Assembly (NCBI GenBank): GCA_951406725.2
Contig: OX597815.1
Span: 172,918,001 to 172,982,000, forward strand
Reading direction: 5' to 3'
DNA length: 64,000 nt
Source: Octopus vulgaris
Lineage: Eukaryota
The first letter of the stretch is position 1. The number at the start of each line of letters is the position of its first letter. The notes under the pieces are model-generated. The model was not told where the DNA came from. It did no database searches and saw only the letters and a program-made list of their open reading frames with translations. Both the position numbers and the translations under genes were made by a program. This document shows, one piece after another, positions 56,903 through 62,955 of this stretch.

Positions 56903-58924
56903 TATATGTGTGCTAGTGTGAGATTGGTGACAGGATAGCAGTTTCATTGCCTTGTAGGTGAGTTCAGTTGCTATAATGGCAGTATTAGTACCTGTTACTG
57001 TCAGCCACAGACCAAAAGTTGAGGGCTAAACCATGTTCTTGGTTTGGAAGCTAGGCTACAACTAACAGAGAAATGACATTTTATTATCTTTTTATATAAT
57101 TTAAGCCAACAGATAATATTGATAATATTGATTTCTTTGGCCTATTACTTAACAAATAAGTAAGGCTGAAAAAGATAGAGTTGGCACCTCTGATTGATTG
57201 AAAGAGGTCAAAATATGCAAAACAAAGCAACTGTCTTGTTCCTACACTAAAAAATTTGCAAATTTTAGAAATACAAGTTAGCAAAAAAGCCAAGATTTAT
57301 TATAGTGGTCAATGTACTTCAAATCATTCTGTGATGCATACACATCAAGCCTGAAGTATACACCCAAAGGAAAATCTTTTCTTTTCAAACTTTTAGGAAA
57401 AAAAAACAGCACTTGTTTAAGAGTCACTCCTTATCAACAACTGGCAACCATCACAAAATCTCTTGATGGCTCTGAACCTCCTTCAAAGGAAACTATTTGT
57501 TGCAAGATAAGGGAAATTCCTTGGATACAAATATGAAAATTAAAAACTTGATTTAGATATTACCTTTAAATTTCTATTTTTATTTTCGTTAAAAATTTCA
57601 GCAAGACATGATTGTGTAGTTAAGAAGCTCACTTTTCAACTATCTGGTTTCAGGTTCAATCCCACTATACAGTAACTTGGGCAAGTGTCTTCTACTATAG
57701 CTCTGAGCTGACCAATGCCTCTTGACAATCAGTATTCGTTTGTTTATGTCCCCTTGACTTAGTAGTTCAGTCAAGAGATTGACAGGATAAGTATGAGACA
57801 TAAAAATAAGTACTGGGGGTGATATGCTCAAGTAAAACCCTTCAAGGTGGTGCCCCTGCATGGCCACAGTCCAATGACTGAAACAAGTAAAAGATACGAG
57901 AGAAAAGAGAAAAATTCTCAAAAGCATGGAGAAAAGATTACAGAAATTAATCAGAAAGAAAAAAATAATCAACTTATAAAAACAGACTCTAACAATCAAA
58001 TTAACTTTTTTTCCATTCATATTTTCATTCTTGGAGAGACTAGAGAATTTTTAAAATTTGGATATTTGCATATAAATTGTATAAATTATAAGAAATAATT
58101 AAGCCATGATTATTTTCCTTTTTTATAATGTATAAATAAAAATGTTTATGGTGTATGAAATTAGTGCAAGTATTGTAGAGTTGGTGTAAATTCCTGACTA
58201 GTAGAGTCTGTAATTTAGCTTTGGTCCCCCATGGAAACACTTCACATTGAAATTTTTCCTAATCAACTTGGCCAGTCAAACTACATGAATTCAGAGCTTC
58301 CAGAAAGAACCCTCTTAAAGGTTATGAATGATTTGCATTTCATATAAATTTGTATCAAACAGGGAACAAATCTTTCATGCTTAATCTATTTCTTATTCAA
58401 AATCTCATAGAAATCATAAATCATCTTTATATTATTTGGTAATTTCAAGTAAGTAAAGCAAAAAATACTATTAATTGAAGAAAAATTGTAATGAAGCATT
58501 ATAAATAATACATTCTTTAAAAATAAGCTTTCAGTTTTTTATTGATGTTTTATAAAATGTCAAGTAGCAAGTCTCCTTGCAGATAAGGGCTTTTGTTGTA
58601 AATCATATAAATGAAAATTTTCAACTTCTTTTTCATTCAAAATATACTAGTTTGATTTTTGAATAATGTTTTTATAATAAAATAAATCTTGCTGAAATTC
58701 CAAATCAACTTCCCAAAATATTCAGTTACATTACATTATAAGCAAGTAATGTATTCTTCAAAAACAAACATTCAGTTTTCATTGTATTTGTTGGAAATAT
58801 AAATACTACAGAATATCTTTCAGTAATTTTGCCTTCAATCATGGTTTTGAGGTAGTAATGCAAAACAAAGGATAAAAATACAAAAGAATATGTATGTATG
58901 TATGCATGTATGTGTATATGTACG

Positions 58925-58971
<47 letters not shown>

Positions 58972-59365
58972 AGATATGTTTTAATTATAGTGTTTCTTAA
59001 TACATTTTAATATATGTATGTTAGTAACACATGGGTTCTAACTTATGAGTACATTTTATGACATATATATCTATTCTGTAACTAGTACATACATGATTCA
59101 TCTAGTTTTCCTATGTAGGTGGGATTTGTTTATTTGTTTTGGCTGTGTGTTATATATGTGGAGGTAAATTGGATTTATATATTGTTCTAAAAACTTGTTC
59201 AATTATCTATTGTTGAATAATTCTTTTCATTTTTTCTTTTTGAAGGGATTTTGCTACAAACATTAAATATTTATAAGGATATTCAAATTTCCTTAGACAC
59301 ATAAGATTTTGTTGGTGGTTTTACTTTATACTGATGACACAGAAGGAATATTTCTTATATTTATG

Positions 59366-59417
<52 letters not shown>

Positions 59418-59772
59418 TACATATATATTAATATTTATTTTACATATATTGGACATTAAATTATGATGATGATGATGATTGATGTACATTGATATGTGTA
59501 TGTGAGTGTTTGTGTACTAATATATATCAATATATATTAGTAATAGAAATATTAATATTTCTAAGTCTCTCTAAAGGAGACTATGGCAGCAGTACTGGAT
59601 ATTAATAGTTATCGCCAAGCTAATATGGCAGTCCAGAAATATAGGACGGATGCTGCCATTGATTAGCTCCAAGAGGCCATCGCCTCTAGCTAGCTATGTG
59701 ACACACACACACCTGTGTCCATTATAACCTTCGATCAGGGGAGGTCAGCTGCTTCCCCATGCTGGTCAGGCA

Positions 59773-59815
59773 TCTTCAGGCTAGTTTCAGGGTATTTGCC
59801 CCTTATCAATGCAGA
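59773..59815 (-). ncRNA. Degenerate minimal type I hammerhead ribozyme
   Basis: TCTGCA-TTGATAA-GGGGCAAATACCCT-GAAA-CTAG-CC-TGAAGA versus the ideal TCTGCA-CTGATGA-stem II-GAAA-CTAG-TC-TGCAGA. Stem III is palindromic. Confidence 0.55.
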
Positions 59816-60021
59816 GTAGCCGAACCCAACAAGCGTCGCTTTATCTTTATTATAGGCACAATGGCCCGAATGAAGAGGGGACATAACAATACAGGACATG
59901 GGGTACATATAATAAAAAAATACAAAAAGGATGGTATGACAATGAATTATTTGTAATGAATTAAATGGAATGTCTTACGAGCCCCCCAAAGCTCGCAGTT
60001 TCATTTACAATTACAATTGTG

Positions 60022-61071
60022 TTATTCAGGGCTCTCATCCGTAATGTACTCGAGTAACTTCTCCTGTTCTATAATACCTGGCAACCAGTCATACCGAATG
60101 CATTTCATTACGCATACAGCTGTAAACATATTTTTCAGTTTCATTACTGTCTCTCTTTCTACAATCGCCGCCTTCACTTGGTCATCAAATATCTTCGGGT
60201 TCAACTTCACTCTAATTAGACTTTTCATATTTGCCAACCTCTTCTCAATTTCCTTGTCCTTCTTGTACAATATTATAGCTTTAAGATTTCTTCCCTTTGG
60301 TCTTCCTCTTTCCTTACATATTTTCAGCTGTTCTTCCACTCTTCTATCCCATTCTTCCGTTACTTGACAATTTGAATCTTCACTCGCTTTCGTTTCTGTA
60401 GCTTTCTCTTCGTGCGTTCGATTCTCTATCTTGTCGGTAGACCTCTTTTTAGCTTTTTTCTTTTTTTGTGCTTTGGGTTGTGATTCCACCCGCGTTCTCT
60501 TTCTATCCTCTTTTTCTTCTGTTCTTTCCTTTTCTTTCTCCTTCACCAACTCGTCACCACTTTCCACATTATCTGTAGTCACGATTTCCTCTTCTACATT
60601 CGCCTTCTGTAACTCCTCTGTCAAAGCCTCCAGTGTTATCGTTTTCTCTTGTACTTCTCTTAGTGAACACATATCCTTCATGTGGCCTCTAATTTTACAT
60701 TTGTAACACACTGGGGGTCTCCCCTCCACCATGACTCTGAGACGTGTCTCGTCGGGAACCACCAACTCCTCTGGTATGTTATACAGGTCTGGCATGGTTA
60801 TGTGAACCAAAGCCTACACCGCATAACCCCACCACTTTACTTCTTTCGACTTTTCTACCTTCAATATGTCGACGCTCTCTTTGCAGTTGAATACTATTGT
60901 CGCTAAAATTCTTTCCATGTTCAGTTCTGGTGAAATTTTACTTATTCGTATTCTTACTGCCCTTTTTCCACAATAGCTAGGTAGTAACACCCATTTTTCA
61001 GTTTTCAATATTTTCGTGGCATTCCTCTTTGCTTCATCTTCGTTTTTAAAATGAACGATTACTCCAACAAT
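60022..61071 (-). pseudogene. L1/Tx1-type ORF1-like nucleic-acid chaperone (RRM-like + CCHC knuckle + charged tail) with one in-frame stop at 60814-60816
   Basis: ORFs 60814-61008 and 60022-60810 are in the same frame. VHFKNEDEAK...VRIRISKIS...IPEELVV...VEGRPPVCYKCKIRGHMKDMC matches the ORF1/ZCCHC3-like pattern G-x-P-x-x-C-x2-C-x3-GH-x4-C. Start codon not resolved. Confidence 0.7.
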
Positions 61072-61503
61072 TCACCTCGCCGTAACAGCTTCCACCAACG
61101 AATTCGAACTCACAACCGTAACACAAAATAACTGACACAAAAAACCAGCAGGCGTTGCTACTGACCATCTGTTCGAAGGATTATTTACCTAAATCCAGTG
61201 GAATACATCAACTAGTTTTCAAAAATAGAAATGTTAATATTTCTAAGTCTCTCTAAAGGAGACTACAGCAGTGTTACTGGATTTAATAGTTACCACCAAG
61301 CTAATATGGCAGTCCAGAAATATAGGACGAATGCTGCCATTGATTAACTCCAAGAGGCCATCTCCTCTAGCTATGTGACACACAAACCTTGGTCCATTAT
61401 AACCTTCGAACAGGAGAGGTCAGCCACTTCCCTTTGCTGGTCACATATTAGCTTGTGTTACATACCTAGCTAGAGGTGACGGCTTCTTAGAGCTAATTAA
61501 CAG

Positions 61504-61991
61504 CATGTGACGGAAGCTGTTTTCTGTGTATTTTCAGTGTTTATTGACCCTGAGCATTTGTCACATACAAAAACTATCTTCCCAGTTAGCCCTCCTTTGA
61601 TATTGTTGCACCTCTTATTTGTCCATAGCTTACACTGAGTACATCTTATGGGATTTCTACCTATGCCTTTTCTACAGATCAAGCAGGTCCATCTACCTGA
61701 ATGGATTTATGATTTGTCTGCCTTCCTACTTATTAAGACTTTGGTTTTTGCTAGATTGACTCTAAGGCCCTTGGATTCTAGACCTTCCTTCCACACCTGA
61801 AACTTCTCCTCTAGTTCTGATAGTAACTCAGCTATTAGAGCAAGGTCATTAGCATAGAGAAATTCCCAAGGGCATCCTGTCTTGAATTCCTCTGTTATTG
61901 CCTGGAAGACTATGATGAATAAAAGGGGCTGAGGACTGATCCTTGGTGGACCCCTACCCCAACCCAGAATTCTTCACTATACTTGTTTCCA

Positions 61992-61995
<4 letters not shown>
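61504..61995 (-). mobile_element. RTE LINE RT fragment with PHD-like finger
   Basis: [11 protein letters not shown] and LYANDL motifs, then CLICRKGIGRNPIRCTQCKLWTNKRC...CDKC. Confidence 0.8.
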
Positions 61996-62033
<38 letters not shown>

Positions 62034-62077
62034 TACATACATACATATATATATACACATATATACATATGTATATT

Positions 62078-62133
<56 letters not shown>

Positions 62134-62188
62134 AATATATATATGTATATATGTGTATATATATATATATATATGTATGTATGCATGA

Positions 62189-62244
<56 letters not shown>

Positions 62245-62359
62245 ATCAGCTGAAATTGCAAGGATGATCCGGTTCTTGACTGAAGATTGAAGGTTTTGAA
62301 TGACCCGTCCGTGTTTTTTGTATCGTCTTCTAAATGTTTTGCGTTCTTGCCCCAGTTTG

Positions 62360-62409
<50 letters not shown>

Positions 62410-62444
62410 GTGGCGTATGTACCCTCTCTCTCTTATATATATAA

Positions 62445-62955
62445 TAGAGGACCTGCCAAGCCAAGTGAAATCATAGCCATGGTAACCCAAGCTGGTGGCA
62501 TGTAAAGAACACCTATTGGCATTGGGCTTCATGGAGGCAAAGTAGCTGAGTTCTTTTCCAGTGTTGGGCCTCATGGAAGCAATGTTACTGAGTTCCTTTT
62601 GAGTGTTGGGCCTCAAGGAGGCAATGACCAAGACCTTTGGCATTATGTCATACTTGAGACGAAGACGCATCAAGTCGAGCAAAATTACAGTCATGGCAGA
62701 TACCAGTGTCATGCAAATGACACCCATGCCAGTGGTATGTAAAAGCACCCTGGGGTCACATAAATACCATCTATGCCAGTGGTATGTAAAAGCACCCATT
62801 ACATTCTCAGAGTGGTTGGCATTAGGAAGAGTATCCAGCCATAGAAAACGATGCCAAATTAGACTGGAGTCTGGTGCAGCCTTCCAGCATGCCAGCCCAG
62901 TCAAACTGACCAGCCCATGCCAGCATGGACAACAGACATTAAATGATGATGATGG

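Follow-up and report, generated by a model that had tools for sequence, protein, structure and literature searches.

An ORF1-only LINE derivative that probably inserts at the predicted starts of hammerhead retrozymes in Octopus vulgaris

LINEs reduced to their first open reading frame (ORF1) are known from the L1, Jockey and CR1 groups (passages in PMC5786205 and PMC5753468), and transcription driven by flanking sequence has been proposed for SINEU and is known for R2 (passages in PMC4494074 and PMC4640811). Among hammerhead-bearing repeats, mussel retrozyme monomers measure 350–390 bp (excerpts of PMC7229834 and bioRxiv 10.64898/2026.07.22.740005). The U3-A8 core pair is a described hammerhead covariation that occurs in the ribozymes of Penelope-like elements (PLEs; excerpt of PMC4209133), and the variant has been reported to be active in vitro (excerpt of PMC3088659). 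Here we describe a locus in which an ORF1-only LINE derivative sits between two monomers of a hammerhead retrozyme. It lies in a window of 64,000 nucleotides of Octopus vulgaris DNA, the whole stretch that was analysed, and consists of the following features, given in the reading direction of the minus strand:

61497–61973, minus strand: decayed LINE RT fragment with a PHD-like C-terminus, outside the element (Pfam RVT_1, E = 1.5e-5; PHD, E = 0.007)
61454–61506, plus strand: left arm of the retrozyme insertion, an inverted body fragment (blastn, 82% identity to the 3′ monomer over 56 nt, E = 3.5e-9)
61145–61443, minus strand: upstream retrozyme monomer, 5′-truncated and without hammerhead, ending in predicted promoter and start (88% identity to the 3′ monomer)
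61210–61216, minus strand: PSE-like motif (family form ACCAGTG, changed twice here), 57 nt before the predicted +1; putative promoter element
61145–61159, minus strand: 5′ target-site duplication, covering the 15 nt with which the retrozyme transcript is predicted to begin (from the sequence; 12 of 15 bases agree with the 3′ copy)
59841–61144, minus strand: ORF1-only (HAL1-like) LINE derivative, putatively Tx1-type, 1304 bp in this copy
61064–61065, minus strand: junction of a 320–325-bp internal deletion (global alignment to L002, L003 and L004)
60022–61064, minus strand: ORF1 remnant with part of RRM1, RRM2, a CCHC knuckle, a charged linker and a C-terminal alpha/beta domain (from the model of the intact relative P0002)
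59843–59909, minus strand: 3′ tail ending in AATAAAGAT, resembling the tail of the autonomous LINE (local alignment)
59826–59840, minus strand: 3′ target-site duplication, corresponding to the positions +1 to +15 predicted for the downstream monomer
59542–59840, minus strand: downstream retrozyme monomer, reaching the usual 3′ end of its family
59773–59815, minus strand: type I hammerhead with the U3-A8 core variant (TTGATAA...GAAA) and a palindromic 2-bp stem III, its cleavage triplet mutated in this copy

An earlier note on this DNA had read the locus as a single Penelope-type element carrying a LINE ORF1-like protein. The parts that it listed are largely real: the inverted partial repeat, the two direct repeats of ~220 bp (59542–59768 and 61224–61443, 88% over 227 nt, E = 5e-77, blastn), and the lack of any RT, GIY-YIG or integrase within 59542–61506, confirmed by reading frames and Pfam. 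The 5′ repeat extends on to 61145, and the upstream monomer (61145–61443) shows the same continuity into the promoter region that is seen in ORF-free tandem copies. The minus-strand frame also stands (61071–60022, with one TAG at 60816–60814 and a CCHC knuckle of pattern GRPPVCx2Cx3GHx4C at 60708–60667), but its ~350 codons do not reflect the length of the family: full copies encode 434–463 aa in whole units of about 1.6–1.75 kb, and the deletion at 61065/61064 took the ATG and about 100 N-terminal codons from the window copy. With its internal deletion, stop codon and mutated cleavage site, this copy is dead. The RT fragment directly upstream (61973–61497), which we take to be RTE-type, is a separate, older element flanking the insertion. 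We favour, at a probability of roughly 0.8, a nested insertion in which a Tx1-type LINE derivative that has ORF1 alone entered a retrozyme at its predicted start, where the RT and endonuclease of an autonomous LINE likely placed it.

The host repeat is a retrozyme of non-coding tandem monomers with a period of 361 nt and one type I hammerhead each, within the 170–400-nt range of non-LTR retrozymes. A genome search with the 3′ repeat returned 2605 candidates, of which 40 were scored. The window ORF is absent from all 29 other retrozyme loci fetched, and the ORF-free copies are partial tandems with common inverted arms and one shared 3′ end. Groups within the retrozyme superfamily are 55–75% alike, their hammerhead stems covary across families, and the core pair 3–8 is C-G, U-A or U-G. 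The hammerhead motif reported earlier is therefore in place, but its supposed decay from a CTGATGA core is rejected: TTGATAA, found in 26 of the 28 scored ORF-free copies, is a family-fixed U3-A8 variant and takes the place of the intact CTGATGA that had been expected in other copies. Within the hammerhead, the window copy has private changes in just two places, the cleavage triplet (GTC>GCC at 59780) and one base of stem I; contigs from four public sequencing runs show the family base at 59780 and span the 3′ part of the element, giving neither start nor strand. Rfam over 58500–62500 found no hammerhead, even at E ≤ 10, and the motif folds no better than shuffled sequence (z = -0.79, two of the three tested stretches being off-frame and uninformative); we make the hammerhead call because of the core sequence and the stems that covary across families.

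Several lines of evidence show that the inserted unit is a LINE derivative separate from the retrozyme, with its own 5′ end, 3′ tail and target duplication. First, as the earlier note had proposed, the protein is a LINE ORF1 of the L1/Tx1 type; it has two RRM-like domains and a CCHC knuckle. In a model of P0002 (pLDDT 71) these are followed by a disordered linker and another alpha/beta domain (residues 332–443). Foldseek with this model matches tandem-RRM proteins (E about 2e-4), an Atlas comparison gives 0.90 to ZCCHC3 RBD clusters, and the family profile matches ORF1 of Keno-type loci (E = 1e-7 to 1e-9 in a small set). Pfam gives nothing beyond a sub-threshold zinc knuckle, and a word-seeded protein database search, insensitive to distant relatives, found no match to P0002, whole or as residues 55–250. 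Second, the predicted abundance and constraint are both borne out. Searching the genome with the protein gave at least 95 matches, many of them open, when 92 of 19799 candidates were scored, and among 19 distinct open ORF1s the median pairwise dN/dS is 0.13 for the RRM and CCHC part (105 pairs) and 0.34 for the C-terminal part, with no pair above 1, the pairs being non-independent. ORF1 is under purifying selection, and in all 19 open copies it runs straight into the 3′ tail with no ORF2. Third, each unit has a T-rich 5′ end, the same 3′ terminus as the window copy and a duplication of mostly 15–21 bp, and the family carries the footprint of target-primed reverse transcription, namely target duplications and 5′ truncation. 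We class it as a LINE derivative and not as cargo of PLE pseudo-LTRs (pLTRs) because of its own ends and duplications and its occurrence in four unlike retrozyme groups, at U2, in stacks and as truncated copies off the repeats.

Fourth, the units lie at one position of the retrozyme. All 74 matches of one tail pattern were sorted by hand: 57 tails abut a retrozyme start, 1 a U2 start and 16 lie elsewhere. Units flanked on each side by a retrozyme start, either whole or with an internal deletion, account for 41 of the 74 (one without the promoter motif, one without the downstream monomer) and truncated units with a duplication at a retrozyme start for 2; 3 are whole units away from retrozymes and U2, 13 are truncated units away from retrozymes (8 with a clear duplication), 11 tails at 9 loci have neither promoter nor duplication and are followed by a retrozyme, and 3 are of unclear class. 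By these hand counts, 42 of 45 whole units are on target against 2 of 15 LINE-type truncated units (Fisher p = 1e-8). An automatic survey places the hammerhead core 21–38 nt behind the tail at 59 of 87 junctions, against a hammerhead-like pattern in 177 of 20000 random 95-nt windows; its junction classes are wrong for a few rows (L020, L126, L127, L147 and L148), and in the survey of duplications the short matches include chance ones. Among the off-target cases, a whole unit with a 17-bp duplication occupies a non-retrozyme site without Rfam match (L009, C4:98705300–98706900), and a truncated unit adjoins a long (CCCTAA)n array inside a chromosome (L409:2460–2520, oriented).

Fifth, units occur in four retrozyme groups that are only 55–75% alike, and a tree of 49 units requires at least 13 changes of target group, where the minimum possible is 5 and shuffled labels give 21.6. 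The target group is thus clustered on the tree, and unit identity correlates with retrozyme identity (rho = 0.48 over 316 non-independent pairs); co-copying of unit and retrozyme would also produce both patterns. The window unit shares 94.7% identity with that of L005, whose retrozyme is of a different subtype (88%). It also shares 93% with units from a retrozyme group that matches the window body at just 63–70%, whereas ORF-free copies match the window repeat at 90–94%. Units 74–90% alike also stack head-to-tail with only the duplication between them. HeT-A also stacks head-to-tail.

An autonomous LINE has the same ends and the same landing site. It is 5.5 kb long, with an ORF2 of 1129 aa that contains APE, RT and zf-RVT domains and has L1 ORF2p as its closest solved relative, and alignments show a 5′ leader and a 3′ tail common to it and the ORF1-only unit. 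It alternates with the units in arrays L145, L150 and L158. Of its 25 tails, 24 stand at the start of a retrozyme or of U2: 16 precede a hammerhead, 3 precede another element, and 5 are at U2, 4 of them in one array; 1 tail lies elsewhere. The two ORF1s are only about 30% identical, so the true donor of the unit may be a sister family. The earlier note was thus right that the unit has no enzyme of its own, but the partner that it named, a PLE, gives way to this APE-RT LINE. One internally deleted LINE of the autonomous type, with the start of APE fused to the end of ORF2, sits at a window-type retrozyme start (L053:960–1500, oriented).

Partner and unit are probably of Tx1 type. An ORF2 with APE, RT of the L1 group and zf-RVT, together with an ORF1 of tandem RRM and CCHC that resembles ZCCHC3, is suggestive, and the RT of the partner forms the sister group of a clade containing Keno-type elements inserted in U2 (weakly supported, SH-aLRT 87), in a tree built without named reference Tx1 elements. 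The closest named homologue of the partner LINE is from Argonauta hians (64%). Metagenome relatives (80 loci at ~30% identity, 20 of them scanned with Rfam) are Keno-type or flanked by 5S, none of those scanned lying at a hammerhead; on six contigs (L236, L241, L243, L246, L249 and L250) Keno-type LINEs lie within U2, and one LINE precedes 5S rRNA.

A sister ORF1-only lineage with another tail was also seen, stacked ~30 nt downstream of TATAAA boxes that belong to other repeats (L061, L063–L066, L080–L084, L088 and L098). L061 contains five of its units, which are 99% alike, and the stacks also include other ORF1-only families (34% identity). An abundant short repeat (L068:5950–6401; L084 and L021; oriented) has a 3′ tail nearly identical to that of this lineage, and could thus be a SINE mobilised by that group of LINEs.

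A short motif lies upstream of the insertion site. Retrozyme monomers end with an ATCAGT-type motif 55–60 nt ahead of the insertion point, as do U1, U2 and U5 upstream regions ahead of +1. In 18 of 19 retrozyme targets, hand-picked starts from about five related groups, the motif, of only 6–7 nt, stands at this distance before the duplication. It lies at -57 to -59 in 15 of 15 U1 loci, at -57 to -61 in 24 of 30 U2 loci (4 others hold a LINE tail there) and at -56 to -59 in 17 of 20 U5 loci. By chance the strict form would appear in 0.2% of 7-nt windows, and the looser form used for scoring somewhat more frequently. It was found in none of 20 U6 upstream regions, most of which may be pseudogenes; one tandem U6 array (L349–L353) has a common upstream region that differs from those of U1, U2 and U5. 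Newt satellite 2 has an snRNA-type promoter. In vertebrate snRNA promoters the proximal element lies about 60 bp upstream (according to passages in PMC4494074). The placement of the site 55–60 nt behind a motif common to U1, U2 and U5 makes promoter capture by the LINE and its unit likely. As separate observations, the usual 3′ end of retrozyme insertions is a T run just before the promoter motif (for example 61217–61226 in the window), and LINE and unit 5′ ends open with a T run; such runs would suit Pol III termination and are a poor simple fit with a Pol II snRNA promoter.

We propose that the tandem layout would set a Pol II snRNA-type promoter ahead of the next monomer and that the LINE would borrow it, so that its RNA would begin with the first ~14 nt of the host. 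These host-derived ends would help to pick and join the target, so that new copies would stack at the same start. In LINE copies at U2 starts, the leader of 14 nt corresponds to a retrozyme start, which a source RNA initiated at such a start would explain. Selection keeps ORF1, which might help its own RNA into particles with the ORF2 protein of the partner.

For the targeting step alone, the strongest competitor to this account is that DNA sequence or RNA–DNA pairing suffices, through an ATC-like cut site and host-derived RNA ends, the promoter deciding only transcription. We hold this to be a serious possibility, at somewhat below even odds. U2, which starts with ATCGC as one retrozyme group does, is hit in 4 of 30 loci, while none of the 15 U1 and 20 U5 loci carrying the same promoter motif has a LINE or unit tail before it; several off-target sites, too, start with ATC or AAC, and leaders are carried between targets. 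The unhit U1 and U5 loci mean that the promoter alone does not set the target, and together with the far greater share of whole copies on target they suggest that pairing of host-derived RNA ends with the target likely contributes. Against sequence as the sole determinant, the starts of the retrozyme groups diverge after 2–3 bases while the distance from cut to motif stays constant, and the sister lineage behind TATAAA boxes points to start sites as such.

At nine loci, with 11 tails, promoter and duplication are missing and the unit runs into the retrozyme; L091 and L011 contribute two tails each, and L012 lies outside the 74-tail census. Six composite cases have an inverted arm 88–99% identical to the forward part. 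In L115, L393 and L011 the inverted left arm itself contains unit tail and retrozyme start; the inverted arm of L396, L390 and L012 is retrozyme sequence (94–99% to the downstream monomer) joined directly to the unit. TA runs flank both outer ends in five of the six, and L005, L113, L381 and L091 are truncated within the unit and have no duplication. This footprint matches that of ORF-free retrozymes of the same genome, and inverted arms with microsatellite targets are also published for PLEs (excerpt of PMC8557442). Later deletions could explain one-armed composites, though not easily arms that contain unit sequence. In these composites, unit and retrozyme were copied as one piece, as a secondary mode, presumably when read-through RNA of both took the Penelope-type route of ordinary retrozymes. 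The genome contains a young, intact Penelope-type family (781-aa frames in near-identical copies at L212, L217, L231 and many more matches) whose 3′ repeat carries a minimal hammerhead with a TTGATAA core. None of the 30 examined of 148 GIY-YIG loci carries retrozyme sequence as part of a PLE, so we infer the copying enzyme from the footprint; one of these loci adjoins a retrozyme on the opposite strand and looks like nesting.

The assignment of the repeats to retrozyme or Penelope-type sequence thus held, with partial tandems, inverted 5′ arms and microsatellite targets in retrozymes and composites alike, whereas the autonomous PLE sharing the pLTR that the earlier note foresaw did not turn up among the loci examined. 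Its protein-coding composite, presumably moved by a PLE, exists at the nine loci but is not the main mode, in which the unit has its own LINE ends and an APE-RT partner. It seems that the machinery of two different transposons serves a single element.

The nine loci, with their inverted arms and TA-repeat targets, raise the alternative that repeat, ORF, hammerhead and repeat together form the standard unit, which would be a coding retrozyme mobilised by PLE RT and endonuclease, and that a LINE-type insertion was only the founder. Some sister pairs are alike in both unit and body (L069/L093, 96.8/98.8%; L011/L017, 97.7/96.5%), and the 781-aa PLEs would be at hand. We judge this improbable: units changed targets at least 13 times, stacks of unlike units are parted by the duplication alone, copies at U2 and off the repeats carry duplications, and in several whole loci (for example L383, L392, L405 and L099) the inverted arm ends at or just past +1 and contains no unit tail. 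The nearest sisters of the window unit, moreover, lie in other retrozyme subtypes (body 88%, against 90–94% for ORF-free copies). The two repeats of the window copy are 91% alike, within the 87–96% of ORF-free tandems, so that either route fits this copy; its sisters make targeted insertion the likelier one. That an ordinary LINE fragment nested here by chance, or that the repeats are true Gypsy/Copia-type LTRs, is scarcely credible even in a genome dense in nested repeats and with the array adjoining an old LINE fragment, and is refuted by the census: 57 of 74 tails stand at one position of the retrozyme, ORF1 leads directly into the 3′ tail in every open copy, no TG...CA LTRs flank the coding part, and the repeats are tandem monomers, mostly ORF-free.

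Taken together with the nested insertion that we prefer, these observations allow a four-tier chain, which we offer tentatively and think somewhat less likely to hold than to fail. PLEs would move retrozymes that bring their own snRNA-type promoter; a Tx1 LINE would home there, its RNA ends steering and the hammerhead cutting its 3′ end; an ORF1-only rider would use the LINE; and the composite would be re-copied by a Penelope enzyme, so that one coding RNA would serve two reverse transcriptases and a coding circle of ~2 kb might arise.

With their many natural copies, the families allow a test of target choice and target switching in APE-type LINEs, by promoter capture or by RNA-guided joining, and the locus type indicates where animal retrozymes may have their promoter and start. 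The genomic footprints indicate that the retrozyme route can carry kilobase cargo upstream of a monomer, which bears on the PLE–retrozyme mechanism, still a proposal. For annotation, hammerhead-bearing repeat–ORF–repeat layouts may be nested targets, and Rfam misses TTGATAA cores. Our full-text search of the literature, with Repbase and Dfam outside its range, found no paper that describes LINE insertion at the start of a retrozyme or Tx1 elements reduced to ORF1. The available portions of bioRxiv 10.64898/2026.07.22.740005 mention neither promoter, snRNA nor Tx1, and the repeat library of PMC13282606, as given in an excerpt, has 13 recently active L1-Tx1 families, which may include the present ones unnamed. 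ORF1-only LINEs, target-specific Tx1 elements and PLE-dependent retrozymes are thus known separately; for their combination we found no precedent in the literature.

As far as the available portions of the cited papers describe them, each known system shares part of this arrangement. PLE pLTRs (PMC8557442, PMC4209133) resemble the retrozymes of this genome in their partial tandems, inverted 5′-truncated arm, microsatellite bias and palindromic-stem-III hammerhead with U3-A8. Unlike pLTRs, the retrozymes have no RT or GIY-YIG and, beyond the core type, no match to the pLTRs of 30 PLE loci; the PLE-type RT and GIY-YIG expected between pLTRs are absent from the element, which holds only the ORF1-like protein. 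Metazoan non-LTR retrozymes (PMC7229834; bioRxiv 10.64898/2026.07.22.740005) are alike in their ~360-nt tandem monomers, single type I hammerhead and proposed mobilisation by PLEs, and differ in that those described here have an snRNA-type promoter motif, a LINE landing site and up to ~1.6 kb of LINE cargo. Tx1L (in Tx1D), Tx1-Mar and Keno (U2) share with the partner an ORF2 of APE, RT and zinc finger, an RRM and CCHC ORF1, a fixed site in a transposon or U2, and tandem stacking (PMC4494074, PMC4640811). The partner, however, inserts at +1 to +15 of U2 and retrozymes, whereas Keno-type metagenome relatives cut U2 near nt 38, and unlike target-specific Tx1 LINEs it is a single lineage with several hosts united by a promoter motif. 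HAL1, HeT-A and Ag-Sponge (PMC5786205, PMC5753468) come closest to the unit itself, having ORF1 only, the ends of a partner LINE and an ORF under selection; the unit is set apart from them by its putative Tx1-type origin, its targeting of predicted starts and its occasional re-copying together with the host repeat.
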